A stretch of 63,324 bases of DNA, counting the filler. It is 6 parts of 6 records of this genome, joined end to end, with 100 filler letters (N's around TTAATTAATTAA, not from the genome) between each part and the next. Parts side by side here need not be neighbours in the genome. Positions count along the whole stretch, not along the records: positions 49,198 to 56,452 come from SRR31156797_54303; 5 more parts are not named here. The stretch is one strand, 5' to 3'. Made by a program: the position numbers and the translations under genes. Below, one piece after another: positions 8,997 through 56,552 of the stretch. The notes beneath the pieces are model-generated. The model was not told the DNA's origin. It saw only the letters and a program-made list of their open reading frames with translations, and did no database searches. Numbering within the stretch: the first letter of the stretch is position 1; each line of letters opens with the position of its first letter.

Positions 8997-9136
8997 AGAA
9001 CAATTCCCGGGAGACCGTGGGCAAAGCCTCGGGGTATGTATCCCTATTTGTCAGTCGTCCGACTTTACTGATTCACCCCTGTTTTATGATGACAAAAGCT
9101 GAATCCCGTTATATCTTTTAAGAACATTACGAATAG

Positions 9137-9210
9137 CTTAACCGCGTATAATCCCGATAATTCGGTTCGGGAGTTTCTACCAGGAACCTAAATCCTGATT
9201 ACGAGGTAAG
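9137..9210 (+). ncRNA. Purine riboswitch aptamer, adenine-sensing type (cis-regulatory)
   Basis: CGTATAAT-P2(TCCCGA/TCGGGA)-GTTTCTACC-P3(CAGGA/TCCTG)-GATTACG; U at the discriminator position (GATT, not GACT); upstream of adenosine deaminase. Confidence 0.9.
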
Positions 9211-9268
9211 TCTGTACCGCAGGGAAGCTGCGTCCGTACAGGTTTACCTTGTGGTCAGGATTTTTTTT
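9191..9268 (+). terminator. Riboswitch-controlled intrinsic terminator overlapping the aptamer 3' half
   Basis: AATCCTGATTACGAGGTAAGTCTGTAC pairs over 27 nt (Watson-Crick plus G-U only) with GTACAGGTTTACCTTGTGGTCAGGATT, ending in a T8 run. Confidence 0.85.
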
Positions 9269-9296: not shown

Positions 9297-10295
9297 ATGA
9301 CGGATCATCTTCAAACCCTTCCCAAGATCGAACTTCACTGTCATCTGGACGGATGCGTCCGTCCCGAGACGGTGATAGATATAGCCCGGAAAGAGGGCAT
9401 CAGACTCCCTGGCGAAAACATCGATGCGATCCGCGACCTTATGTCGGTGGACGAGGACTGCCCCACCCTGGAAGAGTACCTGAAGCGCTTCGACCTGCCC
9501 GGCCTTGTGATGCAGAGTGAAGCCGCCCTGGAAAGGATAGCCTATGAGCTGATGGAGGACGCGGCCGCCGAGAGCGTGAAGTACCTTGAAGTCCGCTTCG
9601 GGCCCCAGCTTCACAGGCAGAAGGGTCTGAGCCTTTCGCAGATCATAGGGAGCGTTATCCGGGGCATGAAGAGGGGAGAGGAGGACTTCGACATCCGTGG
9701 CAATCTCATCCTCTCCGCCCTGATCGGCTTCCCCATGGAATCCCTGTACGAGATCATCGAAGAGGGAAGAGAGTTCCTGGGCCGCGGCGTTGCGGCCATG
9801 GACCTGGCGGGCTCTGAGGTCGAGGGCTTCGACCCCGGTTATGTGGAACCCTTCGCCCTGGCGAAGGAGTACGGCTACAGGATCACCATCCACGCCGGCG
9901 AGGCGGCCTCGGGAAACAACGTCCTGGAGGCCGTCAGGCTGCTGGGGGCCGAGAGGATAGGCCACGGGGTACACCTCAAGACCAGCGCCGAGGCCTATGA
10001 TCTTGTTAAAGAGAAGGGCATCCATCTGGAGATCTGCCCCACCAGCAATATCCAGACGAAGTCTATCGCAAGCTACAAAGAGCACCCTGTTATGGACTTT
10101 ATGAGGGAGGGCATCTCCGTCTCCATCAACACGGACAACAGGACCGTATCGGCCACCGATATGCCCCGTGAGATCGGCCTGGTCTCCCGGTGGAACGGTC
10201 TGACTGAGGATGAGTACAGACAGATCTATCTGAACAGCGTGGAGGCCTCCTTCGCCGATAAGGATATCAAGGCCCGGCTGCGGGAGTATATCTGA
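9297..10295 (+). CDS. add: Adenosine deaminase
   Basis: LPKIELHCHLDG, IHAGE, RIGHG, CPTSN, INTDN motifs; adenine riboswitch upstream. Confidence 0.93.
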   Translation: MTDHLQTLPKIELHCHLDGCVRPETVIDIARKEGIRLPGENIDAIRDLMSVDEDCPTLEEYLKRFDLPGLVMQSEAALERIAYELMEDAAAESVKYLEVRFGPQLHRQKGLSLSQIIGSVIRGMKRGEEDFDIRGNLILSALIGFPMESLYEIIEEGREFLGRGVAAMDLAGSEVEGFDPGYVEPFALAKEYGYRITIHAGEAASGNNVLEAVRLLGAERIGHGVHLKTSAEAYDLVKEKGIHLEICPTSNIQTKSIASYKEHPVMDFMREGISVSINTDNRTVSATDMPREIGLVSRWNGLTEDEYRQIYLNSVEASFADKDIKARLREYI

Positions 10296-17625: not shown

Positions 17626-17725
17626 NNNNNNNNNNNNNNNNNNNNNNNNNNNNNNNNNNNNNNNNNNNNTTAATTAATTAANNNNNNNNNNNNNNNNNNN
17701 NNNNNNNNNNNNNNNNNNNNNNNNN
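17626..17725. other. Artificial contig linker 1
   Basis: N44-TTAATTAATTAA-N44 (stops in six frames); base composition changes across it. Confidence 0.99.
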
Positions 17726-18990: not shown

Positions 18991-19036
18991 TTGATAGTAA
19001 AGAGTGTTCATCCACTCATTAAATAATTTGTCAGAT

Positions 19037-20398
19037 ATGGCCGATATTAATACAATAAATAAGGATTTCGCTGACTTGTTTAATCAAGGAAATGAATTGT
19101 TGTTGGAAGGTTCGTCAGATGTAATGAACGAAACTCGCAAGAATGCTTTCCAGGATTTTGCAAAATTAGGCGTACCTACTCGTGCCAACGAGAATTACAA
19201 GTACACCAACTTGATTCCGGCTTTTGATCATCCATACAATGTAAATCTTAAATATCAGAAAGTTGATGTTGATTTGAATGAGATTTTCCAGTGTGATGTG
19301 CCTGAGTTGGATACCAATATGGTATTGTTGACAAATGGTTGGTATTACGGAAACAATAAAGAGTTGACTGAATTGCCTAAAGGGGTTATTGTTTGTGGTG
19401 TTCAGGAAGCAGCAGAAAAATATCCTGAAATTTTTAATGCACACTATGGCAAATATGCCAAAACCGACGATGACGGTATTGTGGCATTAAATACTTCATT
19501 GGCAAAAGATGGATTTTTCATTTATGTGCCAAAAGGAGTTGTTATAGAGAAGCCAATTCAGGTTGTGAACCTATTGCGTTCCGATCGTGATTTAATGGCA
19601 ACTCAAAGAAATTTAATTGTAGTTGAGGAAAATGCTCAGGCAAAAATTATTGTTTGCGATCATACCTTAACACACCATAGATATCTTTCGAATTCGGTTA
19701 CTGAAGTAAATGTGGCAAGGAATGCAGTGTTCGATTTGTACACTTTGCAAAATCAGCATTTGAATTCGGTAATTTTGAATTCTACATTTATCCGTCAGGA
19801 AGCACATTCAAATGTTCTTACAAATACAATTTCATTGTACGGAGGAACAATTCGTAACAATCATCATGTGATTATGGATGAGGAACATTGCGAGAACAAT
19901 ACGTTCGGAATGTACTTGATGGATAGAGAACAACATGTAGATAACTTCACATCGATTGATCACGCCAAACCAAATTGCTTGAGTAACGAGCATTTTAAAG
20001 GTGTGATGGATGATAAAGCTTCAGCGGCATTTGCTGGTCGTATTTTTGTACGTCGCGATGCTCAGCAAACCCAAGCTTATCAGTCTAATAACAATTTGTT
20101 GCTTTCAAACGATGCAGTTATCAACACAAAACCTCAGTTGGTAATAGATGCCGACGATGTGAAGTGTAGTCACGGTGCAACTGTTGGACAAATGGATGAG
20201 GATGCATTGTTCTACTTGCGTGCAAGAGGAATTGATGAAAAAGAAGCTCGCCAGATGTTGATGTTTGCATTTGCTCACGAAATTATCGAGAAAATCAGAG
20301 TTGAGCCTTTAAAAGAAAGAATCGACGAATTGGTTGATATGAGATTGCGTGGAGAAATTTCAAAATGTAACACTTGTGCAATTGCATGTAATCATTAA
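19037..20398 (+). CDS. sufD: Fe-S cluster assembly protein SufD
   Basis: ENYKYT, KPQL.I.ADDVKCSHGATVG, FYLRARGI; between sufC and sufS. Confidence 0.93.
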   Translation: MADINTINKDFADLFNQGNELLLEGSSDVMNETRKNAFQDFAKLGVPTRANENYKYTNLIPAFDHPYNVNLKYQKVDVDLNEIFQCDVPELDTNMVLLTNGWYYGNNKELTELPKGVIVCGVQEAAEKYPEIFNAHYGKYAKTDDDGIVALNTSLAKDGFFIYVPKGVVIEKPIQVVNLLRSDRDLMATQRNLIVVEENAQAKIIVCDHTLTHHRYLSNSVTEVNVARNAVFDLYTLQNQHLNSVILNSTFIRQEAHSNVLTNTISLYGGTIRNNHHVIMDEEHCENNTFGMYLMDREQHVDNFTSIDHAKPNCLSNEHFKGVMDDKASAAFAGRIFVRRDAQQTQAYQSNNNLLLSNDAVINTKPQLVIDADDVKCSHGATVGQMDEDALFYLRARGIDEKEARQMLMFAFAHEIIEKIRVEPLKERIDELVDMRLRGEISKCNTCAIACNH

Positions 20399-20413
20399 AA
20401 TTGAAATGATATT

Positions 20414-20441
20414 GTAAGGACGTAGCATTGCTGCGTCTCTA
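20414..20441. repeat. REP-like palindrome
   Basis: GTAAGGACGTAGCATTGCTGCGTCTCTA hairpin; similar element at 22523-22542. Confidence 0.5.
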
Positions 20442-20458
20442 GCATATAATAATATACA

Positions 20459-21682
20459 ATGACGCTGGACATAAATAAATTACGTAAAGATTTTCCAATT
20501 CTTGGAGAGAAGGTACATGGTAAGCCATTGGTTTACTTCGATAATGCTGCAACGACTCAAAAGCCTCGCCAGGTAATTGATGAAATGGTGAAGTATTATT
20601 ACAAGTACAATTCTAATATTCATCGTGGGGTTCATTATTTAAGTAATAAATCTACAGATGGGAACGAGAATGCAAGAAAAATTGTACAGCAATTTATTAA
20701 TGCTGAACATCTGCATGAAATCATTTTTACGGGTGGAACAACAGAATCAGTAAATCTTGTCGCAAATTCTTTTGCTGACAGATATATTGGCGAAGGCGAT
20801 GAGGTGATTGTTTCTGAATTGGAGCATCACTCTAATATTGTTCCCTGGCAATTGGTTTGTGAACGGAAAAAGGCAACTCTAAAAGTGATTCCTTTTAATG
20901 ATAAGGGAGAATTGCTTGTTGAAAAGTTAGATGAGTTGATTACTGATCGAACTAAAATTGTTGCTGTTAATCATATCTCCAACTCATTAGGTACTATTAA
21001 TCCAATTCGTAAGATTATTGATATCGCACATGCTAAAAATGTACGTGTTTTAATTGATGCAGCTCAATCTGTTCAACACAAGAAAATTGATGTTCAGGAT
21101 TTGGATGTGGATTTTCTTGTATTCTCAGGTCACAAACTTTACGGACCTACTGGAATTGGTGTATTGTATGGGAAAGAGGAATTGTTGAATGAGATGCCAC
21201 CTTGGCAAGGTGGTGGTGAAATGATTAAGGAAGTTCGTTTTGACGGAACAACTTTTAATGAATTGCCATTTAAGTTTGAAGCTGGAACTCCTAATTATAT
21301 AGATGCAATTGGTTTAGGTGCCGCAATCGAATATGTTGAAAATATTGGATTGGAAGCTATTGATGCTCATGAGCAAGAATTGTTGGAATATGCAACGGAA
21401 AAATTGTTGAATATCGATGGTTTGAGAATTTTCGGAACAGCTGATAATAAAACATCAGTAATTTCATTCCTGGTAGAGGGAATTCACTTTTATGATATGG
21501 GAATGTTGTTGGATCAGATGGGAATTGCTGTTAGAACAGGAACTCATTGTACCGAACCAGTGATGCAACATTTTGGAATTGATGGAACAGTTCGAGCTTC
21601 GTTTTCGTTCTACAACACAAAGGAGGAAATTGATGCCTTGTATAACGGAATCTTGAAAGTTTGTAAAATGTTTGTACATTGA
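20459..21682 (+). CDS. sufS: Cysteine desulfurase SufS
   Basis: YFDNAATTQKP, EHHSN, FSGHKLYGPTG (PLP Lys), RTGTHC. Confidence 0.95.
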   Translation: MTLDINKLRKDFPILGEKVHGKPLVYFDNAATTQKPRQVIDEMVKYYYKYNSNIHRGVHYLSNKSTDGNENARKIVQQFINAEHLHEIIFTGGTTESVNLVANSFADRYIGEGDEVIVSELEHHSNIVPWQLVCERKKATLKVIPFNDKGELLVEKLDELITDRTKIVAVNHISNSLGTINPIRKIIDIAHAKNVRVLIDAAQSVQHKKIDVQDLDVDFLVFSGHKLYGPTGIGVLYGKEELLNEMPPWQGGGEMIKEVRFDGTTFNELPFKFEAGTPNYIDAIGLGAAIEYVENIGLEAIDAHEQELLEYATEKLLNIDGLRIFGTADNKTSVISFLVEGIHFYDMGMLLDQMGIAVRTGTHCTEPVMQHFGIDGTVRASFSFYNTKEEIDALYNGILKVCKMFVH

Positions 21683-25604: not shown

Positions 25605-25704
25605 NNNNNNNNNNNNNNNNNNNNNNNNNNNNNNNNNNNNNNNNNNNNTTAATTAATTAANNNNNNNNNNNNNNNNNNNNNNNNNNNNNNNNNNNNNNNN
25701 NNNN
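25605..25704. other. Artificial contig linker 2
   Basis: N44-TTAATTAATTAA-N44. Confidence 0.99.
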
Positions 25705-31154: not shown

Positions 31155-31254
31155 NNNNNNNNNNNNNNNNNNNNNNNNNNNNNNNNNNNNNNNNNNNNTT
31201 AATTAATTAANNNNNNNNNNNNNNNNNNNNNNNNNNNNNNNNNNNNNNNNNNNN
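31155..31254. other. Artificial contig linker 3
   Basis: N44-TTAATTAATTAA-N44. Confidence 0.99.
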
Positions 31255-38404: not shown

Positions 38405-40546
38405 TTAAGAGCAATTTTTAATTATAGGTAATGGGGCTATTGTTTGCGTCTCAGCCTGTTCTTTTTTACCAAGGAGGTATAACCAACCGTAAATAAAGGC
38501 CAACATCAGCAAAGAGATCAGGATATAGAGCAAATCATGCCCTTCTGTAATTTGATAAAAGAGAGTGGCCACAGCCCAGGCGAGAAGTGTAGCATATATC
38601 GCCATTACTGCTGCATAGTAGCCTCCCATTTCCTGGCGTGCCGCGCCAATGACTGCAAGGCAAGGAAAATACATGAGGACAAAGAGCAGGTAGGCAAAGG
38701 CAGAGAATATAGTGAAGTTGGCCGCTATATGTTTATACACTGAAGAGCTAGCACCGATTTCTTCAGAAATTATTTCTTGATCTTCGGTGATCAGTCCAAT
38801 ACCTAGCAAGTCAAAACTACTGATAACTCCAACTAATCCTTCACCGACAGTAGTAAATGCTTCAATTATTGTTCCACCTATATCAAGGCTGCTTTGCTCC
38901 TCAGTGGTTTCAATTACAGTTGACTCGCTCATGTCCATTGATGAATACAGCGCGTTAACTGTGCCGACGATGGCTTCTTTGGCAAAAAGTCCGGTAAAAA
39001 GAGCAACCGATGCAGGCCAGTTTTCTTTTGAAATCCCCATTGGTTCAAAGACAGGTGATATTGCTTTACCTGCATGAGCTAATATAGAGGATTGTGAGTC
39101 TTCATTGCCAAAGCTCATTTCTCCATTTTCATAACCAATGGAATTAACAAGGCTAAGCACAAAAACCGCTGCTACAACGATAACCCCGGCTCTTTGAATA
39201 AAGGACTTGAGGCGCAGCCAAGCATTTTTAAGAACTGCACTAACACGTGGAGCGTGATAGAGCGGCAGGTCCATTACAAAATGGGAAGGTGTGCCTTTAA
39301 AGAGGGTATTTTTAAGAAAAAATCCCGTGAGTATTGCCATAAAAAGCCCACTGAGATAGATCAGAAAAACTGCTAAACCAGAATACGCACCAAAGAGAGC
39401 TGCACAAAAAAGAGCATAGACTGGCAGTCGCGCACCACAGGACATGAATGGTGCCATAAATATGGTCATGAAACGATCTCTTTTGCTGCTGAGGGTCCGT
39501 GCCGCCATCACCGCAGGAACGGTGCAGCCAAATCCAACAATCATGGGAATAAAGGCTGACCCCGGCAGGCCTATTTTCCTCATAAACCTGTCGGCAACAA
39601 CACCGACCCGAGCCATGTAGCCCAAATCCTCAAGAATTGCTAGAGCGAGGAACATAAAAAACACCACAGGAATGAAAGTGGCCACGGTTTGGCATCCGGC
39701 ACCGATACCTCCGGCAATTGCAACAGTAAGCCATTCTGGGCTACCGATAGAAGAGAGGAAGGCTTCAGGTACATCGACAAAAACAAGGCCGCCGAGAATG
39801 TCAAAGAAATCAATAAATACTGAGCCGAGCCCAATCGCAAACCAGAATGTGACAAACATTGAGGCAAGAAAAATCGGAACAGCAGCGAAACGATTCATGA
39901 CGACATTGTCAATCCTGGTGGTAAGGTTTTCGCTTCGGTCCTTTTTCTCGAGGGCAACCCGCCCGCAAATTGTATCTATGTGCGCATATTTTTTGACCGT
40001 ATCCATGATTTCTCTAGTTGAAGCATGAGACTCATGGGCTGGTAGATTGGTAACATGCTGCTCAATTTGGTTTACCGCTTTTTTTACCGATGCTTTATCA
40101 ATTGCTACTACAGGAATAACTGGTAACCCGAGGTCTTCACTCAGACGGTTAATATCAATTTCGATACCTTCATTCTCCGCGACATCAACCATGTTAAGCA
40201 AGACAATGATTTGGTTGGTCCGCTCTTTCAAATCCATCGTTAGATACAAGTTACGAGACAAGTTTGTAGCATCCACTACATTGATGATTAGATCATACTC
40301 ACCATCTCGAATAACTCGTTCTGCAACTTTCTGGTCTTCAGTATCAGGGCTAAGATTGTAGGTTCCGGGTAAATCAACCAGTTCAACCCTACTCTCCCGC
40401 AGCGAAAAAGTTCCTTCTATCTTTTCAACTGTTACACCTGGCCAGTTGCCGACCTTTTGCCTCGCACCTGTCAAGCTATTGAAGAGCGTTGTTTTGCCTG
40501 AATTAGGCACACCAGCGATAGCTATTCTTTCAATTTTATGCTGCAT
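38405..40546 (-). CDS. feoB: Ferrous iron transporter FeoB
   Basis: GVPNSGKTT (G1), VGNWPGVTVEK, DLPG, NMVD, GFGCTVPA, PFMSCGARLP, YFPC. Confidence 0.96.
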   Translation of the reverse strand: MQHKIERIAIAGVPNSGKTTLFNSLTGARQKVGNWPGVTVEKIEGTFSLRESRVELVDLPGTYNLSPDTEDQKVAERVIRDGEYDLIINVVDATNLSRNLYLTMDLKERTNQIIVLLNMVDVAENEGIEIDINRLSEDLGLPVIPVVAIDKASVKKAVNQIEQHVTNLPAHESHASTREIMDTVKKYAHIDTICGRVALEKKDRSENLTTRIDNVVMNRFAAVPIFLASMFVTFWFAIGLGSVFIDFFDILGGLVFVDVPEAFLSSIGSPEWLTVAIAGGIGAGCQTVATFIPVVFFMFLALAILEDLGYMARVGVVADRFMRKIGLPGSAFIPMIVGFGCTVPAVMAARTLSSKRDRFMTIFMAPFMSCGARLPVYALFCAALFGAYSGLAVFLIYLSGLFMAILTGFFLKNTLFKGTPSHFVMDLPLYHAPRVSAVLKNAWLRLKSFIQRAGVIVVAAVFVLSLVNSIGYENGEMSFGNEDSQSSILAHAGKAISPVFEPMGISKENWPASVALFTGLFAKEAIVGTVNALYSSMDMSESTVIETTEEQSSLDIGGTIIEAFTTVGEGLVGVISSFDLLGIGLITEDQEIISEEIGASSSVYKHIAANFTIFSAFAYLLFVLMYFPCLAVIGAARQEMGGYYAAVMAIYATLLAWAVATLFYQITEGHDLLYILISLLMLAFIYGWLYLLGKKEQAETQTIAPLPIIKNCS

Positions 40547-40784
40547 CGTGACACTCCTTAACGAGGACCTGCTGTGCTTCATTCTTTCTTAAGGCGATTC
40601 TGCTGCCCCTTATCTGTACCACGATAGGGTCTGACATTTTTACAGAGGCAAGTTCCACTGGGGTCCCTTCAACAAAACCCATTTTGTACAGCTTGTTGGC
40701 ATACTCTTGTGACTGGATATCAAACCCAGCAACCTGATAAATAATCCCAGCCTGCATCCCAACAAGGTCAATTCTCGAGCTCAT
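40536..40784 (-). CDS. feoA: Ferrous iron transport protein FeoA
   Basis: KLYKMGFVEGT.V, DPIVVQIRGSRIALR; overlaps feoB start. Confidence 0.92.
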   Translation of the reverse strand: MSSRIDLVGMQAGIIYQVAGFDIQSQEYANKLYKMGFVEGTPVELASVKMSDPIVVQIRGSRIALRKNEAQQVLVKECHDAA

Positions 40785-45653: not shown

Positions 45654-46898
45654 CTAGACGTGTCGCAACGCGGTAATAGGATTCATTCGGGATGCCTTCC
45701 AAGCCGGTTGGAGACTGCCAACAACGGCAACAACAATAACAATACCGACCACTAGCAGAACATCGGTAGTGCTGATAACCGGTGCCAGCAGCAGGTCTTT
45801 TTGACGACCAAAGTCAAAACTGATGCTGGAGACATTCATGCTGGCAATGGCAACCAGACTGATAACAAGACCAATAAGGGTTCCCAAAATTCCGAGGAGT
45901 AACCCTTCGGTTAAGAATAAGGCCAAAATCTTACCCGGCCCGGTTCCAATGGCTGCAATTGTGCCGATCTCATGAATGCGCTCATACACAGACATGATCA
46001 TCACGTTCATGATGCTGACCAAGACAATGGCAACCAACATGATCTTGATAAACAGCGTCATCAAATCTATCATGGCTGCGATTTTGGAGAATGGGGACAG
46101 TTTTTCCCAGGAATGGACTTCAAAGACAGGCTTCCCCTGCTTGTTGAGGATTCCCCCCAGGGACTCTTTAAGATTGGCCAACACACCCGGCAGAGTATCC
46201 ATGTCTTTAAGACGGATAGCGATTTCACTTACCTCAGGTTTATCGATCCGGAGCAGGGTCGTGGCATCACTTAAATGAATATATCCATCACGCCCGCCAG
46301 GTCCGGAGATACTTTCCAAAATCCCCCTAACCACAAACGGTTGGCCATTAACCAGGCCATCTTTATTAGTTGCAACCAGGACGATGGTATCCCCTACTTT
46401 TACCTTCATGCCCTTGGCAATGAGTTCGGGCACCAGTATTTCCCCCTTAGCCAGTAAACCCTCTTTTTTCCCTTGTATTATCCGGTCAGAAAGCATTGGG
46501 GATGCCTGCTGTTCCTGTTTCGGGTTAACGGCGTTGATGCGAATATTGGTGGTTTCATTATAATTGCTGAACATAGCCCCCAGCTTAATGCGCATGGAGT
46601 ATGCCTCAACCTCAGGGCTGTCGTCTAAAAAAGCTTTTACCCTGGCGACTTGTTTCCCTTTGAGATTACGGTTTAAGGGGAGACTGTCGATGGAGGCAAT
46701 ATAGCCCTTCCGGTGCACCTGCAGGTGGCCCAGCATGGAGTCAGTTATCTGCCCTACCATCATCGACTTGAAAGATCCCGATACCGATACAAACAACAAC
46801 ACCGCCACTACGCCAAGGGTTATGAGAATCGAGGTGAGCAGGGTTCTTCTTTTGTAGCGTAATAAATTGCGTGCCGCTATTTTCAATACGTTATACAT
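45654..46898 (-). CDS. ABC transporter permease, LolC/E-FtsX/MacB type
   Basis: ARNLLR.KRRT, SVYERIHEIGT..AIG, PAWKASRMNPI.ALR. Confidence 0.9.
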   Translation of the reverse strand: MYNVLKIAARNLLRYKRRTLLTSILITLGVVAVLLFVSVSGSFKSMMVGQITDSMLGHLQVHRKGYIASIDSLPLNRNLKGKQVARVKAFLDDSPEVEAYSMRIKLGAMFSNYNETTNIRINAVNPKQEQQASPMLSDRIIQGKKEGLLAKGEILVPELIAKGMKVKVGDTIVLVATNKDGLVNGQPFVVRGILESISGPGGRDGYIHLSDATTLLRIDKPEVSEIAIRLKDMDTLPGVLANLKESLGGILNKQGKPVFEVHSWEKLSPFSKIAAMIDLMTLFIKIMLVAIVLVSIMNVMIMSVYERIHEIGTIAAIGTGPGKILALFLTEGLLLGILGTLIGLVISLVAIASMNVSSISFDFGRQKDLLLAPVISTTDVLLVVGIVIVVAVVGSLQPAWKASRMNPITALRHV

Positions 46899-47595
46899 GA
46901 CTCCCTCCCTGGTCGCTGCCGCTGGATAAAAGCAAACCATCTTCAAGGGTGAAAACTATCTCCGCATTCTTAACCACCTTGGGGTCATGGGTGGAAAAAA
47001 TAAAGGTCGTGGAAAATTCATCCCGCATGTTTTTCATCAAAGTAATGATCCGATTGGCAGTATCGCGGTCCAGGTTGGCGGTTGGCTCATCTGCCAAAAC
47101 TAGCTTGGCATTGGTCACCAGGGCACGAGCTACAGCCACACGCTGCTTCTGGCCACCTGATATCTGGCCAGGATATTTTTTTGCCTGATCCTGCATTCCG
47201 ACAGCTTCGAGCAGTTTTTCTACCTGCTGACGCCGTTTCTTTACTGGCCAATTTTGGACCATAATCAAGGGATATTCAATATTTTCAAATACGGTGAGGA
47301 CCGGAATCAGATTGAAATCCTGAAATATGAACCCGATATGTTCACCTCTAAAGCGGGCCGAATCACTGGATCGCAGTCCGGCCACGTCCTCGCCCGCAAC
47401 TTCCAAGCTGCCACTGGTAGGAGGATCTAAACAGCCCATCATGTTCAGCAAGGTCGACTTTCCGCTTCCAGACGGGCCGACAAAAGAGACAAACGAGCCA
47501 GCCTCAATGGAAAAATCCACGCCACGAATCGCCGGTATAGTGATGTCGCCGGCCACATAATCTTTTGTAAGCCGTCTGGCAGCAACAATGGTCAT
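46891..47595 (-). CDS. ABC transporter ATP-binding protein, LolD/MacB type
   Basis: GPSGSGKS, IGFIFQDFNL, ISGGQKQR, LADEPTANLD, STHD. Confidence 0.93.
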   Translation of the reverse strand: MTIVAARRLTKDYVAGDITIPAIRGVDFSIEAGSFVSFVGPSGSGKSTLLNMMGCLDPPTSGSLEVAGEDVAGLRSSDSARFRGEHIGFIFQDFNLIPVLTVFENIEYPLIMVQNWPVKKRRQQVEKLLEAVGMQDQAKKYPGQISGGQKQRVAVARALVTNAKLVLADEPTANLDRDTANRIITLMKNMRDEFSTTFIFSTHDPKVVKNAEIVFTLEDGLLLSSGSDQGGSHV

Positions 47596-49097: not shown

Positions 49098-49197
49098 NNN
49101 NNNNNNNNNNNNNNNNNNNNNNNNNNNNNNNNNNNNNNNNNTTAATTAATTAANNNNNNNNNNNNNNNNNNNNNNNNNNNNNNNNNNNNNNNNNNNN
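49098..49197. other. Artificial contig linker 4
   Basis: N44-TTAATTAATTAA-N44. Confidence 0.99.
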
Positions 49198-49212
49198 TTA
49201 CGGAGGTGCCCA

Positions 49213-49767
49213 GTGATGGCGACCTGGAAGACCCTTAAACCGGCGCAGAAAAAGGCGGCAGGGCAGGTCTTCGATGCACTGTCGACGCTGGATGCGCTGA
49301 TGGAAACCGATCATGAGGCGTCCGCCGGCGGCCGTATCGGTTTTTCCGACATCTATGCCTTCGCCACCAATCCGGCCCGGGGCATGGACAATCAGATGCG
49401 CGAGGCGCTGTTGCAAAATCCGCGGCTGCGCCGGGATCTCGACAAGATGATCGCCAACGCGCCGGTCTATCATTTCCGGCGGGTGGCTGCCGCCAGTTCG
49501 GGCGAAATCGATACCCGCGAAGGCGACGGATTCAAAATCCGCCTGAAACAGTCCCGCGCCGAGGAAACCCAGACCTATGTGATCGTCGAATTGGCCGAGG
49601 GCGCGCCGAAGGCGCCGACCATGCTGTTCGTACGCAACGCCGGCGAGGACTATATCAAGCAGGCTTTGCCGGCGCCCCAGGACGGCGTCATCCAGCTGCT
49701 GGTTGAATCCGATTCCGATTTGGTGAAAGCTCTTCGCGATATTCAAACGGAGGTTTTCATTCGGTGA
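49213..49767 (+). CDS. Hypothetical two-domain cytoplasmic protein, putative anti-sigma-like protease substrate
   Basis: RBS GGAGG; helical N-half, RRVAAAS linker, beta-rich C-half; stop overlaps next start (GTGA). Function is inference. Confidence 0.7.
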
Positions 49768-51254
49768 GCGCGGTTCGGGTCTTCGTTGCCACGACCGAGG
49801 GGCCGTCCGAGGTCCAGCGAATAACGCAAGAGGACCCGGATGTCCGTTCCGTCGTCTGTTTGAACGGGACGTCCCAATCCCTTCAGATCAGTGCCGCTTA
49901 TGACGCCTTCGTGCGCAAGCCGACCGGCATCGTCGAACGCCTGTTCGGCCATCCGGTTTATCGCATGGACGTCGCCGAACCGATTGCCAACGGCATCAGC
50001 TGGCAATTGCCGCTGCTGGTCGCCCATGCCCTGCACGCCGCCGGGCGGCTGGCCGGCAAGGATACGGAAGCGACCTCGGCGATCTGGCTGACCGGTACGG
50101 TCGACAGCGATTTTAGGGTCGGCGCCGTCGACCATATCCCCGAAAAAATTCAAAAATCGGCAGCCCTGTTCGCCTATCTGCGCGAGCAGGGAATTCCGGT
50201 TACCGTCTTCCTGCCGCAGGCGAACTTGCGCGAAACCATGGGCCCCGAAGGCCGCGAAGCCGGCACCGCGTTGCAGGGAATTCGCGTTGTTGCGGCGGAC
50301 TCGGCGGAAACGGTGATCCGCAAGATCGGCCTGACCTGGGCTGGCCCGGCCGTCGTCGGCAAGGCCCGTAAACGCAAATGGCCGTTGATCGCGGCCCTGG
50401 TGCTGATCGCAGGCTCCGGGCTGGCCGCCTATCGCAACCATGAACCGATCGCGGACTGGTGGCAGCAGACGTTTGGTCAACCGACACCGCCGCAGGTCGT
50501 CGAGGCGCCAAGCCAACCGAATCTCGAGCCAACGCCTGAACCGGAACCCGAACCTGTAACCGAACCGGCGGCACCGGAACCCGAACCGTCGGCACCCAAA
50601 CCCGAACCAGTTCCCGAGCCGGTGCCCGAACCGGTCCCAGAACCCGAACCTGATCCCGAACCAGTACCGGAACCTGAACCAGCGCCTGAACCAGTACCTG
50701 AACCCGAGCCCGAGCCCGAACCGGCCGCAACGCTATCGGCCGCCGATCTCCGGCTCGAAGCGACCGAAAGGCGGGCACCGGGCGCGCGCAGTTGCGCCGT
50801 TACCAGTTTCGGCACCACCGCCAGTTATGTCGACCGGCCGATCGGCCTGACCGAACCGAACCGCTTTACAATCAGCGGCGCCAAGGGCCTGTGCGCGGTC
50901 GAATACCGGGTTTCGAACGGATTCGAAGAACCACTCAACGTCTGGGTCTACGCCGCGCCGGTCGGCAGTCGGACGAAATCGGGCGCCACCCTGTCGGCGC
51001 TGTTGCGTAAGAAAATAGCGCCCGGCGAAACGGCGTCGGTAAGCCTGAACCTGCCGCGCTGGGTCCGTGCCGCCTTCCGCCATCGCCTGATCGTCGTCGC
51101 CACCGCGGCCGAGGACGGCGATTTCGGCTGGATCGATTCCGGCATGAGCGCGATCGAATCCTCGTTCGATTTCGCCCGCTGGGCCGAACTGAGCCAGCGT
51201 ATCCGCGATTCCGGCCTGACCCTGGTCTCGGCCTTTCACGAAATCACACCCTGA
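49764..51254 (+). CDS. Membrane-anchored protein with N-terminal Lon-like (S16) protease domain, Pro-Glu stalk and C-terminal extracytoplasmic domain
   Basis: NGISWQLP (Ser79), [18 protein letters not shown] (Lys128), VFLPQAN; RKRK + TM helix; PE repeats; two Cys in C-terminal domain. Confidence 0.72.
50520..50725 (+). repeat. Coding low-complexity tandem repeat (PE/PEPV units)
   Basis: Repeated CCCGAA/CCGGAA/CCTGAA hexamers encoding about 65 aa of Pro-Glu-rich linker. Confidence 0.9.
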
Positions 51255-51350: not shown

Positions 51351-51926
51351 ATGAAGATCATGCATCCACGAACTGTTACACGCATCGCTCCGCGTGGGGT
51401 TGCCGTCGCGGCGATCCTGCTTGCGGTGTCGGCGTGCACCATGAACGGGCAGACCAATCCCATGGAAGGGATCGGATTCCGCGAGGCCCGTTTCGAAGAA
51501 ATATCCGCCATGCAGCAATACCGCCAGTGTCGCGACGACGCCCTGGCATTGGACGAACAGGCCCGCACCAGCGGCAACGCCGGCCGGTATCTGGCCAGCG
51601 CGCGTCTGCTGGAGAAATGCGAATCCGGGCTTGGACCCGAGGTTTCAGGCATCGCCGAGGAAGAACGCATGCGGGCCTATGCCTTGGGCGTTCAGAACTA
51701 TCTGAAGGGCGGCGACATCGAACAGGCCAGCGCCAACTTCGACACCTTCAAAAAGGCCTATGACGGCAAGGACCTCTATTTCCATGACGGTTCTTCCTTC
51801 ATCGAAACCATGTCGGCGCTTCTCGGTCAGAAGCAGGATTCCGATTTCGGCCGTTTCGCCATGCTCAACGTCAACGAGACGCTGAAGGGCGAAATGCGGC
51901 GCGTCCGCTATTGGAAGCGCAACTGA
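51351..51926 (+). CDS. Hypothetical lipoprotein (helical, TPR-like)
   Basis: Lipobox LAVSA-C; helical body with two further Cys. Confidence 0.75.
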   Translation: MKIMHPRTVTRIAPRGVAVAAILLAVSACTMNGQTNPMEGIGFREARFEEISAMQQYRQCRDDALALDEQARTSGNAGRYLASARLLEKCESGLGPEVSGIAEEERMRAYALGVQNYLKGGDIEQASANFDTFKKAYDGKDLYFHDGSSFIETMSALLGQKQDSDFGRFAMLNVNETLKGEMRRVRYWKRN

Positions 51927-51952
51927 CAGCCGCGAACAGAAGGAGACGGCTC

Positions 51953-52861
51953 ATGCAACCCATCTCACGCGCCAATCGCGTGGTCCCTTCCGGCATCGTC
52001 GCCGGGATCGCGTTCGGCATCGGCTTTTTCGCCGTGCTTTTCCTGGCCACTTCGGTGCTGGCGGCAACCCCGTCTTGGCAACCAAGCGCCAGCGAACGCC
52101 TGGTCAAACTGCCAAGCAGCTATCTGAAGAAGGCGGTCGATCGCGATTTCGCCGATTCGGAATTGGCCAACGTGCTTGGCGACGTCAATTCCCAGGTCAG
52201 CCTCAAGGGGCAGACCCTGGGCGATCTGCAATCCGCCATCGACAAGGCGGAAGGCGAAGTCCGGGTTGAACTGCGCCATCAGTTCCTGGCCGAAAAGCAG
52301 GAATTCATCAAGCTGATGGGCGAACAGCAGGATCTGCGGCGCAAACAGGTCAAGACCAAGATCAAGCTCTACGAACGGCTTCTGGCCAAGCTGGAACGCC
52401 GCGAAGCGGGCATGAGCCCGGCCAAGGCCGACCTGATGCAAAACCAACAGGCGGCGCGCCAGCGTTTCGAAAACTCGGTCTCCGGCGTCGACATGGCCAT
52501 CTTCGGCAATCCCGATATGGCGGAAAGCCGCTATTCCCAGGAATTCTCCAAGAACATGGCGGCGATCGAAGCCCTGGTTCAGGCGGTCAAGGAACATCCG
52601 ATGACGGCGCAGCCGGAAATCGACGGCCAGCCGGTCAGCAAGCAGGACTATCTGCGCCAGCTGATTGCCGACAACCAGGCCGAGGTATCCATCCTCGATC
52701 AGGAAGAAACCATCATCGGCTACATGGCCAAGCTGGTTGCACTGGATGCCATGTCCCTTTCCGAAGAAGTCGCCGCTGGCGATTTCGCCGATGACGGTGT
52801 CACCGACGAAGACGGCGAGGTCAGCGTTTCCTCGTCGATCGATTTCTTCATCACCCAATAA
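51953..52861 (+). CDS. Hypothetical exported coiled-coil protein
   Basis: RBS AGGAG; signal peptide ending SVLA; long heptad-like helices; acidic tail. Confidence 0.78.
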   Translation: MQPISRANRVVPSGIVAGIAFGIGFFAVLFLATSVLAATPSWQPSASERLVKLPSSYLKKAVDRDFADSELANVLGDVNSQVSLKGQTLGDLQSAIDKAEGEVRVELRHQFLAEKQEFIKLMGEQQDLRRKQVKTKIKLYERLLAKLERREAGMSPAKADLMQNQQAARQRFENSVSGVDMAIFGNPDMAESRYSQEFSKNMAAIEALVQAVKEHPMTAQPEIDGQPVSKQDYLRQLIADNQAEVSILDQEETIIGYMAKLVALDAMSLSEEVAAGDFADDGVTDEDGEVSVSSSIDFFITQ

Positions 52862-52878
52862 AGACGGAGAACCAAGTC

Positions 52879-53271
52879 ATGAAAACCCTTGGTAAAACCC
52901 TTCTGGTAAGCGTCGCCCTGACCGGCGTCGTCGCAGCCGGCGCGGTCCAGGCCGGCACCCTGGAAAACCTGGAGCGCGAGCGCGCCCTCCTGGTCGAAAA
53001 CCTGTTGTCGCCGGAACTGACCAGCGAAGACCGGATGAAAAAGGTCGCCGTGTCCCAGCACCGCCTGGTCGACCTTGAGCGCATGGTGCTGCGCGATCAG
53101 TCCCTGGTCGGCAAGAACCGGCCCGTCGTGCGCAAGGCCTTCGAAAACTACGACCTGACCTTCCTGGTCCATTCGTCGATCGAGAAGAACCTCGGCCTGA
53201 CCGATCATTGGCTGGACCAGATCGGCATCTCGACGCATTCGCTGATGAACGCCCGCATGGGGAGACGGTGA
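52879..53271 (+). CDS. Hypothetical small exported protein
   Basis: RBS GGAG; signal peptide ending AVQA, mature GTLENLERER. Confidence 0.78.
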   Translation: MKTLGKTLLVSVALTGVVAAGAVQAGTLENLERERALLVENLLSPELTSEDRMKKVAVSQHRLVDLERMVLRDQSLVGKNRPVVRKAFENYDLTFLVHSSIEKNLGLTDHWLDQIGISTHSLMNARMGRR

Positions 53272-53272
53272 C

Positions 53273-53791
53273 ATGCGGGCGGTCCTCCTTGCCCTTGACA
53301 CGGGATCCCGGGCCGCCGCCCTGATGCTTGGCGCGGTCGTCATCGGGCTGGCGGCGGTCGTCATGTCGACGACCTGGTCCGTCGCCGATGTCGGTGCCTG
53401 GGCCGAGCGTGTCTTCGGCGCCACCTTCATCGCCCTGATGGCGGGCCTGATTTTCACCACCGTGTTCTGTTGGGTGAAACTGGTCAAAAGCCGGGGCGAA
53501 GCGGTGTGGATGGAGGCCGGTCTTCAGGCCGCCAGCGGCATCACGACGCTGGCCCTGACCTATACGTTGCTCGGCATCAGCTTGGGCGTCGGCGGCTTGG
53601 CGGCACAGGAACTGACGCCGGAAACCGTCCGCGTCGTGATCCGGGGCCTGACCCAGAACTTCAGTCTGGCCTTCCTGACGACCGTCGTCGGATTGCCGCT
53701 GTCGGCGGCACTTCGGACCGTCCTGGTCGTCACCAATGCCCGGCTGAAAACGCAAACGCCGGGACTTCCGGCCCATAGGATTGGGGAATGA
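53273..53791 (+). CDS. MotA/TolQ/ExbB proton-channel-like membrane protein
   Basis: TLALTYTLLGISLG and FSLAFLTTVVGL align by eye to ExbB/TolQ TM2 (LGLLGTVxG) and TM3 (ALxTTAxGL); two additional N-terminal TMs. Confidence 0.68.
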   Translation: MRAVLLALDTGSRAAALMLGAVVIGLAAVVMSTTWSVADVGAWAERVFGATFIALMAGLIFTTVFCWVKLVKSRGEAVWMEAGLQAASGITTLALTYTLLGISLGVGGLAAQELTPETVRVVIRGLTQNFSLAFLTTVVGLPLSAALRTVLVVTNARLKTQTPGLPAHRIGE

Positions 53792-54456
53792 TCATGCGCT
53801 TTCTTATCTTCAACGCGGTCGTCGTGGCGGCGCTGTTCTATCTTTTCAACGCCGATCGGGACGACATCGCGTCCGCTGCCGATACCGCCCACGCGGTCAT
53901 CGCCCGTGCCCAGGACGCCGCTTCGTCGGCCGTCGACAGGGCCCGCGACCTGTCCGAATCCGGGCGCCTTCAGGAACGCCTTCAGGAATTCACCAAACGG
54001 GTCGACGATGCCGCCCCGGCGAAAGAAACGCCGGCGATGCGGCAAATTCCGACAATGAAAGACGTTTCCGAAACCATCGAACCGCCGCGTCCGCCGTTGC
54101 CGCCGGAACCCGAGGAATCGGGCACCAAGGTGCCGGAAACCGGCACCCGTGTGGCGCAGATCGATGCCGCCCAGGAAACCATTCCGGAACGTTGGATCCC
54201 GGAACGCCCGAAACACACGGTCGATCATTCGGCGGCCGAGTCGGTGATCCCCGAAGTGCCGACCGACGATCCGGCGGTTGCCAAACGCCGCGCCGAGGTC
54301 TTGGGCGGTGCCGAACAAACGCGTCCCGCAAAAGGCGGTTCGGAAATCGCCATTGCCGAGGGCGAATCCCTGATGACGCCCCGCGAACGCCGCAAGGAAC
54401 TTCACAACCTGGCCGAAGACATGGAACTGGTCTTCATCAAGAAGCTCGGCAGGTAG
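53788..54456 (+). CDS. Hypothetical single-pass membrane protein with Pro/Glu-rich linker
   Basis: N-terminal TM (FLIFNAVVVAALFYLF), low-complexity middle, C-terminal helix MTPRERRKEL..LAEDME; start overlaps previous stop. Confidence 0.72.
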   Translation: MIMRFLIFNAVVVAALFYLFNADRDDIASAADTAHAVIARAQDAASSAVDRARDLSESGRLQERLQEFTKRVDDAAPAKETPAMRQIPTMKDVSETIEPPRPPLPPEPEESGTKVPETGTRVAQIDAAQETIPERWIPERPKHTVDHSAAESVIPEVPTDDPAVAKRRAEVLGGAEQTRPAKGGSEIAIAEGESLMTPRERRKELHNLAEDMELVFIKKLGR

Positions 54457-54460
54457 GTCC

Positions 54461-55660
54461 ATGTCCTGGTCTCGCAAACCGGGAAGGATATCGGCGCTTC
54501 TGTCTCTGGGGGCGGGCGCCGTCCTGCTGTTCTTTGTGTTTTCCAGGGTGACGCCGGCAACGGTGCCCGAGCCGGAATTGCAGACCTCCCCAGACGAGAT
54601 GAGCGAGCAGGCAAACCCGGAGGAACCGTCGTCCGAACCGATGGCGGTTGCGAAAATTTCCCTGCCGCCGCCACCGGCTCCGGAAACGCCGAAAGCGCCA
54701 AAACCGGCACCCGTGGCGGAACCGACACTGGAACCGGCAGTGAAGATCGAACCGCTGCGGCCAACGGAAGTCGCGGCGAAACCGGAACCGGCTGCTGAGT
54801 TTGAGCCCCTGCGTCCGGCCGAACCCGAGGTCCAGGCAAAACCGGAGTTGGAGGTGTCGCCGCTCAAACCGGCAAAAACCGAAGCCAAACCGGTCGAACC
54901 GGTCGCCGAGATCCACCCCTTGAAAAAATTGGTCCGGAAAAAACCGTCCGTTCAACCGCGCAAGCCGGAACCCAAACCGGAAAAACGCGCCGAACCGGCG
55001 CCCGAATTTACCGTGAAACCGATGGAACCTCGGCATACGGAATCGGCCCCGGAACCGGAAATGCCGCCTGTCGCCAAACCTGAACCGATGGCGCAACCGG
55101 AAACGGTCCAGGTTTCGGTTCAGACCCGGGGTGCCGTCGTGAAAGAGGGTAGAGCCCTGCTGCGGCTGCTTGAACACGGATCGGGACCGACCATCGAAAT
55201 CGCCTGGCCGTCGGGCAACGGGGCACGGCGACAGCTTTATCGTTCCCTGACCCGGTGTTACGGCATGCAGGCGATCCTCATCGACGGCCACGGCAACCTG
55301 TTCAGGCAAAGCGGCGAACGCGGCCGCAAATGGGAAATCAATCTGGATCGTTTCAGCGGCTTCGTCCGCCAGCCGGCCGGTTTCATCGCCGGCGAGGAAC
55401 AGCGTCTGGGCGAGGATATCCGCCGTTATCACGGACTGGGATACGGCTCCAGCCTGGTCCGGGTCTTTCCCCGGCAGGTCGATGCCGTGCTTCTCGGCGG
55501 GCTGCAAAAACTGTTGGGCGGCAAATACAAGACTTCCGGACTGATCCGGGCGACCTATCGGATGTCAGGAGAAAAGCTCTTTATCGATGGAATCGAAACG
55601 GACGGCGTACCCGTTGACGGCCGGATTGTCTTTTCCGGCCGGCGGGGATGCAAAACCTAA
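54461..55660 (+). CDS. TonB/TolA-like architecture protein (TM, long Pro/Glu/Lys stalk, C-terminal globular domain)
   Basis: TM at about residues 10-27, roughly 185-aa EP/KP-rich region, C-terminal domain of about 180 aa; not recognisably TonB_C. Confidence 0.68.
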   Translation: MSWSRKPGRISALLSLGAGAVLLFFVFSRVTPATVPEPELQTSPDEMSEQANPEEPSSEPMAVAKISLPPPPAPETPKAPKPAPVAEPTLEPAVKIEPLRPTEVAAKPEPAAEFEPLRPAEPEVQAKPELEVSPLKPAKTEAKPVEPVAEIHPLKKLVRKKPSVQPRKPEPKPEKRAEPAPEFTVKPMEPRHTESAPEPEMPPVAKPEPMAQPETVQVSVQTRGAVVKEGRALLRLLEHGSGPTIEIAWPSGNGARRQLYRSLTRCYGMQAILIDGHGNLFRQSGERGRKWEINLDRFSGFVRQPAGFIAGEEQRLGEDIRRYHGLGYGSSLVRVFPRQVDAVLLGGLQKLLGGKYKTSGLIRATYRMSGEKLFIDGIETDGVPVDGRIVFSGRRGCKT

Positions 55661-55679
55661 CAATAAAGGGCGGTGAAAC

Positions 55680-56384
55680 ATGAATGCGGATGGGATCAAA
55701 AGGCTGACCGCACTTTCCCTGGTTTTGGCACTGGCGGCCTGCGCGCAGACCAGCTACGGCCCTTATCGGGCGGGCGGGGCGGACGAATCGGTCATTCCGC
55801 TCGAACGCCGTGTCGAGTTCGAGGTTACCGGCGATTTTTATCGGGATCCGCCGACCTGCGCGATCATCCTGCCGTTCAATTCGAAGACCCAGGCGACGGT
55901 GCAGGCCCAAATGGCCGAAGAAAGCGTCGCCCGCCAGTTGTCGGCGAAGCTCGACCGGGTGATCTGGCCGCGCACCCGGGACAAGCTGCTGCGCCGTTGG
56001 GCCATGGACCTGTCGCATCCGCGGGACCGCAAGGCGTTCGCTTCGCAGGCGCGTTGCAACCATGTCGTCGAAATATCGCCCTTCGGCGGTGAATCCATGT
56101 TCGCGCTGGTCTGGACACAGGAGCGATTGGGCCTGGAGATTCAAATGCGCCGGGCATCGGACGATGCACTTGTCTGGCAGGCCCGCCACAGCGCCACCCG
56201 ATCCGAAGGCGGCGTCCCGTTCTCGCCTTTCTCCGCCGCTTTCAACGCGTTTTCGGTCGGCCGTTTCAAATCTGATTCGGACGTTCCGCATTCGCTTCTC
56301 GACGACGCGGCCAGACGAATCGTCAAGACCCTGCCCGATACGCGGGTCTACGGCTTGGCCGAAACACGCCCGCCCGATTGGTGA
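55680..56384 (+). CDS. Hypothetical lipoprotein (alpha/beta, DUF799/CsgG-like)
   Basis: Lipobox LALAA-C; AIILPF, LVWQA, C-terminal RRIVKTLP pattern. Confidence 0.7.
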   Translation: MNADGIKRLTALSLVLALAACAQTSYGPYRAGGADESVIPLERRVEFEVTGDFYRDPPTCAIILPFNSKTQATVQAQMAEESVARQLSAKLDRVIWPRTRDKLLRRWAMDLSHPRDRKAFASQARCNHVVEISPFGGESMFALVWTQERLGLEIQMRRASDDALVWQARHSATRSEGGVPFSPFSAAFNAFSVGRFKSDSDVPHSLLDDAARRIVKTLPDTRVYGLAETRPPDW

Positions 56385-56452: not shown

Positions 56453-56552
56453 NNNNNNNNNNNNNNNNNNNNNNNNNNNNNNNNNNNNNNNNNNNNTTAA
56501 TTAATTAANNNNNNNNNNNNNNNNNNNNNNNNNNNNNNNNNNNNNNNNNNNN
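56453..56552. other. Artificial contig linker 5
   Basis: N44-TTAATTAATTAA-N44. Confidence 0.99.

Follow-up and report, generated by a model that had tools for sequence, protein, structure and literature searches.

A membrane-anchored Lon-fold protein and its alanine-hinged partner in a conserved gene trio: a candidate transmembrane proteolytic switch

A co-oriented gene string at the start of a contig

The stretch of DNA analysed here (the window, 63,324 bases) consists of six contigs joined by N44-TTAATTAATTAA-N44 spacers (17626-17725, 25605-25704, 31155-31254, 49098-49197, and 56453-56552). The genes considered below begin at the start of the fifth contig (49198-56452), which has a guanine-cytosine (GC) content of ~0.62, and encode a membrane-anchored protein with a Lon-type protease fold together with the small protein that accompanies it. 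As GC content across the contigs of the window ranges from ~0.31 to 0.66, these may stem from different organisms. Neighbours separated by a spacer carry no linkage information.

Nine open reading frames (ORFs) were recognized on the fifth contig, all co-oriented on the plus strand. The first, g184 (49216..49767, +), encodes a small cytoplasmic two-domain protein of 183 residues when read from the ATG at 49216; GTG at 49213 is an alternative start, less likely than the ATG, and the homologues begin with MATWK. Its stop overlaps by 4 nt (GTGA) with the start of the second ORF (49764..51254, +), which encodes a bitopic membrane protein of 496 residues composed of a Lon-fold domain, a transmembrane helix, a Pro/Glu-rich spacer, and a periplasmic immunoglobulin (Ig)-like domain. 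This protein is referred to as the protease below. The start of g184 in turn overlaps the TGA of an upstream open frame that ends in ...YGGAQ* (49199..49216, +) and corresponds to the 3' end of a conserved gene for a protein of ~553 residues (u585), cut by the contig edge at 49198. Seven more genes of an envelope-related cluster follow (51351..56384, +). Every sequence feature that an earlier note on this DNA had described for the first two ORFs is present where that note had placed it. The Pfam, NCBIfam, and PADLOC scans of the nine proteins gave no informative family; matches to Trypan_PARP, SslE, and PD-T4-6 were dismissed, as they fall on the low-complexity Pro/Glu stretch. A scan of the contig for promoters and terminators revealed nothing above shuffled expectation.

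Related loci number 79; judged by their record titles, many are from Rhodospirillales and some from Gammaproteobacteria. By tblastn, the gene immediately preceding the protease gene is g184 in 72/79 of them, and ORF position places it there in further distant loci as well. The two genes share a 4-nt overlap in 30 of 67 loci and lie at most 12 nt apart in 21 more. u585 is present in 76/79 loci (tblastn); among the three loci without a match, the records of L015 and L058 break off a few hundred bases ahead of the protease, and L069 has no tblastn match to the protease. The trio of u585, g184, and the protease is a conserved three-gene unit of marine Rhodospirillales.

The Lon-fold protein and its topology

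The protease ORF contains the motifs GISWQL (with Ser79, the proposed nucleophile, codon 49998..50000, +), WLTG... (with Lys128, the proposed general base, codon 50145..50147, +), and VFLPQAN, followed by KARKRKW, a hydrophobic helix, and a PE-rich stretch. A word-seeded search with residues 1-215 drew 144 proteins at E<=1e-3 from 2165 candidates. The 120 relatives among the matches listed all lack a precomputed Pfam domain, and those with a name are without exception 'hypothetical protein' entries from Rhodospirillales-type alphaproteobacteria. Fifteen columns are invariant in the alignment of 105 relatives (T10, T11, C32, Y46, P53, G55, R67, D69, G77, S79, W80, H88, G111, K128, and C377), so that both members of the putative dyad, as well as G77, W80, and G111, are kept in 105/105 sequences.

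Profile comparisons associate these residues with the active site of Lon. A search of PDB sequences with a 34-member profile reached E 0.03 at best, yet Lon or Lon-like proteases account for 15 of the 20 sequences at E<=10. In the HMMER alignment K128 falls on K625 of MtaLonC, the catalytic lysine of that enzyme according to PMC3391209. Alignment of the first 200 columns of the family with three canonical Lon domains from related genomes (hhalign) is weak (E 0.012); in it, G77-I78-S79 coincides with the G-P-S of PKDGPSAG and K128 with the catalytic lysine of GGLKEK. The distance between Ser and Lys is 49 residues, compared with 43 in the three canonical Lon sequences; the earlier note had given the same spacing, with a value of 43 for E. 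coli Lon. The window protein has no match to Pfam Lon_C at E<=1; across the 105 members no Pfam family matches more than four of them, and Lon_C is not among the matches listed (25 of 32 families). Judged from these alignments, the invariant Ser and Lys occupy the dyad positions of Lon, as the note had proposed.

An AlphaFold2 model built on the 105-sequence alignment has a mean predicted local distance difference test (pLDDT) score of 85, rising to ~95 over residues 1-190. Foldseek returned 174 matches in the PDB at E<=1e-3, the best being 7ksm_E (E 6.6e-7, probability 1.00); those listed are all Lon, RadA, or BrxL protease-type domains, with a TM-score of 0.62 on the target for E. coli Lon (3wu6_F). 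In VIA, a fold search independent of Foldseek, the 18 top rows are all Lon-fold and cover residues 1-191. Its matches include Lon of M. jannaschii (1xhk_B, Z 14.7, root-mean-square deviation (rmsd) 2.8 Å, 157 residues aligned), RadA (8rxc_D, Z 14.7), E. coli Lon (1rr9_A, Z 14.4, rmsd 3.0 Å, 161 residues aligned), MtaLonC (4fw9_A, Z 13.2), ComM (Z 12.9), BrxL (Z 12.7), CalpL (7qda_A, Z 10.0, 126 residues aligned), and birnavirus VP4 (Z 8.8). As modelled, the N-terminal domain (residues 1-191; 49764..50336, +) is a Lon fold, in agreement with the earlier note. With residue 1 already part of this fold, an AAA+ module cannot precede it; g184 ends 4 nt into the protease ORF, and neither Pfam nor NCBIfam detected an AAA family there. 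The absence of the module, likewise claimed before, holds.

Compared with the Lon proteases (MEROPS S16: LonA, LonB, and LonC, e.g., MtaLonC), the domain thus resembles them in its fold (Z 13-15) and, by alignment, in the positions of Ser and Lys, while it differs in lacking an AAA+ or degenerate AAA module, in being located at the N-terminus, in the spacing of the dyad, and in falling outside Pfam Lon_C. Archaeal LonB is likewise membrane-bound, according to PMC3391209; the anchor of the window protease comes after the protease domain and leads to a periplasmic domain.

Lon-like domains are also found in RadA/Sms and ComM, where they accompany ATPase or helicase modules and are regarded as non-proteolytic. 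Both proteins are among the best structural matches (Z 14.7 and 12.9), and the domain of the window protein could, by this analogy, be a non-catalytic scaffold for which g184 is merely a binding partner. In contrast to RadA/Sms and ComM, the window family keeps Ser and Lys invariant, and conservation of Ser79, Lys128, G77, W80, and G111 in 105/105 relatives, at dyad positions, would be hard to explain without catalysis. A scaffold role is accordingly regarded as very improbable, and the domain as a probable active protease.

The protein is predicted to span the membrane once. The transmembrane helix (residues 206-224; 50379..50435, +) is directly preceded by KARKRK, and a hydrophobic 17-mer (Kyte-Doolittle mean >=1.6) is present in 101/105 relatives. 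When the 15 residues on either side of the segment are compared, Lys and Arg are more frequent before it in 91/105 sequences, equal in 12, and less frequent in 2 (means 3.7 and 1.3); an N-terminal signal-like segment was not found. These statistics, which bear out the N-in orientation proposed by the note from the positive-inside rule, support a cytoplasmic protease domain and an extracytoplasmic C-terminus.

Beyond the helix, residues ~240-325 (50481..50738, +) form a spacer of disordered Pro/Glu repeats (pLDDT ~50) that varies greatly in length among the relatives and is variable or absent in the alignment. Residues 326-496 (50739..51251, +) were modelled as an Ig-like beta-sandwich with two helices. 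In VIA, residues 322-496 gave Ig-like rows that are only weak (Z 7-8; PapD-like and MG domains). Cys377 is invariant and Cys344 at least 90% conserved in the 105-sequence alignment, which fits a periplasmic disulfide. No description of a receptor protease of this kind (Lon-type, AAA-less, and membrane-anchored) was found in a literature search.

The partner protein, its hinge, and its predicted docking

g184 has 32 close relatives, and a 37-sequence profile of the family run against a library clustered at 50% identity found 858 representatives at E<=1e-3, 580 at E<=1e-10, and 208 at E<=1e-30. The model of the protein (pLDDT 78.5) consists of four helices (residues 10-33, 44-52, 60-68, and 70-82), a coil, and a beta domain (~101-184; 49507..49764, +), with strands falling within residues 86-184. 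The coil between the two domains contains the Ala-rich hinge RRVAAAS (49477..49497, +), modelled with low confidence (block pLDDT 62), which is the proposed cleavage site. The description of the protein in the earlier note, a helical and a beta half joined by this motif, is reproduced by both model and alignment. Foldseek found no match for the model in the PDB at E<=1e-3.

Conservation of g184 is concentrated in the hinge. A93, A94, and S95 are invariant in 32/32 close relatives. When distant gammaproteobacterial forms are taken in as well (37 sequences aligned), the central Ala still does not vary (37/37) and its two neighbours are at least 90% conserved, while the whole protein has just three invariant columns. 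A simple ORF caller applied to 78 loci recovered an ORF that stops at the start of the protease gene in 69 and failed in 9. Among these 69 ORFs, 60 contain AA[AS][ST] and 7 carry variants (SAAAG, LAAAAG, or AQAAS); the remaining two (L005 and L050) were mis-called and left out of the motif count. The conservation of the Ala linker that the note had presumed is thus borne out across the loci.

A physical association with the protease is suggested by natural fusions. Two of the best 150 representatives from the g184 profile search, P0312 (668 residues) and P0332 (656 residues), are single proteins in which residues 1-181 correspond to g184 (43% identity, E 2e-43) and are followed by a linker of ~13 residues and the protease. 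The latter part is Lon-like (46% identity over 147 residues, E 3e-37) and retains the transmembrane segment and the C-terminal domain. P0312 contains a second Ala-rich motif, KVAAAT, at residues 388-394, between its Lon domain and its transmembrane helix.

The same association was predicted for the separate proteins. The complex of protease residues 1-200 with g184, predicted as one pair and without the alignments of this analysis, passed with an ipSAE of 0.69, against 0.49 for the best of three controls; in the benchmark of the procedure, the mark was reached by 51/78 solved complexes and 2/108 mismatched pairs. The runs share at least 95% of their contacts, and the pLDDT of the partner is at least 71. 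In the predicted interface, residues 19-47, 67, and 69 of the protease contact residues 110-124 and 156-165 of g184, i.e., its beta domain. Several of them are conserved within their families (E23, V27, V30, C32, G35, R67, and D69 in the protease; S114, R115, A116, Q156, Q161, and L163 in g184). Binding between the two proteins is predicted by the model and agrees with the fusions.

The closest known parallel is the CalpL/CalpT pair of type III CRISPR (clustered regularly interspaced short palindromic repeats) signalling. According to a preprint (bioRxiv 10.1101/2024.05.08.593097), CCaCalpL (dyad S154/K195) cuts CCaCalpT within 202-LAAA, between A204 and A205. The N-terminal fragment, which carries a MazF domain, stays on the sigma factor CalpS, while the C-terminal fragment, which has DUF2080, stays with the protease; the newly formed ..LAA end serves as a C-degron for ClpXP. 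The structure of SsCalpL with CalpT10, as described there, has the cut site located away from the active site of the bound CalpL, so that cleavage takes place in trans, by a neighbouring subunit of the oligomer that cyclic tetra-adenylate (cA4) induces. The same cascade is also described in 10.1101/2024.05.08.593092.

The likeness extends over several features. Both enzymes are AAA-less Lon-fold proteins, with a Ser-Lys dyad in CalpL and a putative one here. Each has a small dedicated partner with an Ala-rich motif between its domains (LAAA in CCaCalpT and VAAAS in g184), and the C-terminal beta domain of that partner docks on the protease in CalpL and is predicted to do so here, on a surface distinct from the dyad in both cases. 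The g184 beta domain (96-184) itself matches CalpT10 (8b0u_C) in VIA with Z 4.3 (rmsd 3.0, 67/76 residues aligned), which is within the chance range for beta-sandwiches. As the cut inside LAAA leaves an ..LAA degron, the parallel is closer than the earlier note had claimed.

The differences concern input and output. CalpL senses cA4 through a cytoplasmic SAVED domain, whereas the window protease has a transmembrane helix and a periplasmic Ig-like domain; the Pfam matches listed for the 105 protease members (25 of 32 families, the remaining 7 being single-member ones) do not include SAVED. The N-terminal half of g184 consists of four helices and is not MazF-like. No homology to CalpT was found in g184 at the sequence level, with 0/32 members having a relevant Pfam match (DUF2080 0/32 at E<=10). 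The third component is a ~553-residue protein instead of an extracytoplasmic function (ECF) sigma factor. Pfam scans of two full neighbourhoods (L079 and L011) showed no cas genes, no search aimed at cas genes having been made.

The third gene, the proposed switch, and the surrounding cluster

In the closest full locus (L001), the gene that ends just before g184 encodes 585 residues by longest ORF and 553 in the NCBI annotation, and its product ends in ..LYGGSR. As the homologues in most loci end in ..LYG(G).. directly before g184, the cut frame of the window (..YGGAQ*) is taken to be the end of u585. Of the 8000 candidates scored, 211 proteins belong to the u585 family at E<=1e-3. The 120 matches listed are all without a precomputed Pfam domain, and those with a name are called hypothetical throughout. 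The protein has no Pfam match, and a PDB sequence profile search gave 0 matches at E<=10; a look-up in the ESM atlas led to an unnamed cluster (0.75) and to no structure. In Terasakiella sp. A23, a gene for a PAS-GGDEF diguanylate cyclase is located directly upstream of the 553-residue gene (L011 6807-7757, +), which hints at a link to cyclic diguanylate (c-di-GMP) signalling in that lineage.

The earlier note had interpreted g184 as an anti-sigma factor whose cleavage frees an ECF sigma factor encoded just upstream. Helices 39-84 of g184 do show a weak likeness in VIA to the N-domain of RseA (1or7_F, Z 5.0, rmsd 1.7, 41 residues aligned) and weak ones to RsiW (Z 4.1) and MucA (Z 4.0) over ~41-45 residues; according to the calibration of VIA itself, Z values in this range can arise by chance. 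The nearest named cluster in the ESM atlas, a weak lead (score 0.78), has zf-HC2 in 15% of its members, while no anti-sigma family of Pfam matches any of the 32 g184 members. The position expected for a sigma gene is occupied by u585 in 76/79 loci. A sigma-70 region-2 hidden Markov model (HMM), built from 28 sigma genes of three module-carrying genomes, matched 2 of 80 neighbourhoods (the 79 loci and the window contig), in both cases >5 kb downstream of the protease gene and adjoining the trio in neither. Alignment with 13 ECF sigmas (hhalign) revealed no similarity for u585 (E 0.67) or g184 (E 0.77). An ECF sigma identity of the upstream frame was thus rejected, and an anti-sigma g184 that frees such an adjacent sigma factor is highly improbable; 'anti-sigma-like' is at most a tentative label for g184. 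The analogy with CalpL/CalpT consequently survives in part: fold, conservation, linkage, fusion, and predicted docking speak for a protease with a dedicated, Ala-hinged partner, and the upstream sigma factor has to be abandoned.

Two systems with related logic are instructive for comparison. In BlaR1/MecR1, an extracytoplasmic sensor is coupled through the membrane to a cytoplasmic protease that cuts one dedicated soluble regulator, and the working logic would be the same in the module proposed here. BlaR1 has a zinc metalloprotease domain, a penicillin-binding sensor, and a DNA-binding repressor as substrate; it has no relation in fold or sequence to the window protease. In the RseA-DegS-RseP-ClpXP pathway, it is the substrate, RseA, that crosses the membrane; cut by the site-1 and site-2 proteases, it exposes a C-terminal Ala-Ala degron. 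A similar Ala-Ala end is proposed for cut g184, in addition to the weak likeness of the helical bundle; here, in contrast, it is the protease that spans the membrane, the substrate is soluble, and no sigma factor is encoded nearby.

The evidence is most consistent with a transmembrane proteolytic switch, in which cleavage of g184 by the protease at VAAA/S sets free or activates the 553-residue protein; we put the probability of this reading at roughly 50%. The 496-residue protein would act as a receptor-like protease of the inner membrane, its cytoplasmic, AAA-less Lon-fold domain (Ser79/Lys128) being tied by one transmembrane helix and the Pro/Glu spacer to a periplasmic Ig-like domain with a putative disulfide pair, which might receive the trigger. 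Translationally coupled g184 would dock on it via the C-terminal beta domain and present an exposed, invariant, Ala-rich hinge. Cleavage of the hinge by the protease, probably in trans between the subunits of an oligomer, as in CalpL, would free the N-terminal four-helix half, whose new ..AA C-terminus could mark it for ClpXP. Probably the helical half holds the 553-residue cytoplasmic protein, which cleavage would release or activate. So read, the module is a Lon switch of the CalpL type, making a single cut, in which both input and output are new; it is set in an otherwise uncharacterised gene cluster on which the trio may report or which it may regulate.

Several observations weigh against this reading. 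The sequence tie to Lon is weak (profile E 0.03, hhalign E 0.012, Pfam Lon_C unmatched), as are all fold matches of g184 (VIA Z<=5.4; none in Foldseek at E<=1e-3). The periplasmic domain and the spacer are poorly conserved, and neither suggests a ligand. The 553-residue protein belongs to no known family, as searched in Pfam, the PDB, and the ESM atlas. The predicted interface includes neither S79 and K128 nor hinge residues 92-95; the model therefore supports docking, and not a substrate in the active site. With a control at 0.49, the docking margin is exactly the minimum of 0.20, and the pass may partly reflect likeness to the distantly similar CalpL-CalpT10 complex, as that structure (8B0U) is solved.

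The genes around the trio belong to the cell envelope as far as they can be classified. Upstream, the loci often contain genes for a lipoprotein-like protein of 357 residues (36/79), a transmembrane protein of 142 residues (39/79), and an SLT lytic transglycosylase (48/79; Pfam SLT E 9e-24). The seven genes downstream of the protease in the window (the block at 51351..56384, +), each syntenic in 20 to 41 of 79 loci, encode a lipoprotein with a lipobox (g191), a transmembrane coiled-coil protein (g316), a small exported protein (g130), a protein with four transmembrane segments and faint MotA/ExbB likeness (g172), a transmembrane protein (g222), a transmembrane protein with a Pro-rich spacer (g399), and a second lipoprotein with a lipobox (g234). 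g172 has faint ZorA/MotA/ExbB matches in PADLOC and NCBIfam (E 0.008-0.06), and its conserved motifs LLGISLG...F..AF.TTVVGLP were read as resembling MotA/ExbB/TolQ. PDB profile searches did not recover MotA or ExbB for g172, nor ExbD for the upstream 142-residue protein; the label of g172 therefore rests on the faint matches and the motif reading. Apart from SLT, no known family was detected in the cluster proteins by the Pfam, NCBIfam, PADLOC, and PDB profile searches. In the closest relatives only (3/79 loci), the cluster extends upstream by a secreted trypsin-like serine protease (L001 4830-5768, +; Pfam Trypsin_2 E 5.9e-18) and four more unknown genes.

This co-oriented cluster may represent an undescribed envelope-spanning machine, and the main rival explanation follows from it: the protease might serve the maturation, assembly, or quality control of that machine, by one-time processing or by clearing mis-assembled parts, with no signalling involved. 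The trio indeed lies within a long co-oriented string with SLT, lipoproteins, the MotA/ExbB-like protein with four transmembrane segments, and Pro-rich transmembrane proteins. In a gammaproteobacterial locus (L079), the upstream and downstream blocks make up a single gene string with their order reversed, and canonical Lon is a quality-control enzyme, according to PMC3391209. The trio, however, also occurs without the adjoining block. A g172 homologue was found in four of five genomes; it lies on another contig in Terasakiella and ~15 kb away in Aestuariispira, and was not found in Nisaea denitrificans. The trio is thus the constant core, and the envelope genes are a frequent but separable companion. 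Moreover, the partner is dedicated, co-translated, and in some cases fused, and together with the invariance of its hinge this suggests one specific substrate and not general quality control. On balance, an assembly role is considered unlikely, though better placed than the other alternatives.

Used in another way, the components could make up a switch for defence against phages or for abortive infection, related to CalpL or BrxL, which would sense envelope damage or phage entry and release a toxic 553-residue effector. Two of the Lon-fold relatives, BrxL (Z 12.7) and CalpL (Z 10.0), are defence proteins, the 553-residue protein has no known family, and a protease with a cleavable partner and a released protein follows the logic of CalpLTS. 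PADLOC, on the other hand, gave for the nine contig proteins just one low-complexity Pro-rich match, the faint ZorA matches of g172, and two weak single ones (E 0.009 and 0.017). Defence islands have a patchy distribution, whereas gene order and envelope context are kept here across 79 loci, from Rhodospirillales to some Gammaproteobacteria. A defence role therefore appears improbable.

The proposed switch can be extended to a wider and distinctly more speculative picture, in which the trio would be a hitherto unrecognised type of single-pass transmembrane switch: the periplasmic Ig-like domain would control oligomerisation of the cytoplasmic, AAA-less Lon protease, followed by trans-cleavage of g184 at AAA/S and release of a ~553-residue cytoplasmic protein of a new class of effectors or regulators. 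The latter might govern an undescribed envelope-spanning machine of marine Rhodospirillales and some Gammaproteobacteria, comprising the SLT protein, a MotA/ExbB-like channel, TonB-like spacers, and lipoproteins.

If the switch is real, the CalpL/CalpT principle (an ATPase-less Lon making a single cut in the Ala-rich hinge of a docked partner) extends beyond CRISPR signalling, and a Lon switch would be wired to a membrane receptor, i.e., a route of transmembrane signalling unlike two-component systems, ECF/anti-sigma pairs, or BlaR1-type metalloproteases. It would also offer a first handle on a widespread uncharacterised gene set, of which the g184 family alone has the 858 representatives mentioned above. 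Thalassobaculum, Nisaea, Terasakiella, and Aestuariispira are among the cultivable hosts that would allow a direct test of the prediction.

The other contigs of the window carry ordinary genes. Housekeeping functions, including SufB/D, a class-V aminotransferase (SufS-like), FeoB, and a MacB-type permease, are encoded at 19004-21682 (+), 38408-40582 (-), and 45657-47595 (-). Next to the MacB-type permease, the ORF at 46891-47595 has Walker A and signature motifs, by which it was read as a probable ABC ATPase. At 9124-9221 (+), a purine riboswitch (RF00167, 62.6 bits) immediately precedes an adenosine deaminase gene at 9297-10295 (+; Pfam A_deaminase, E 1.7e-85), an ordinary arrangement.

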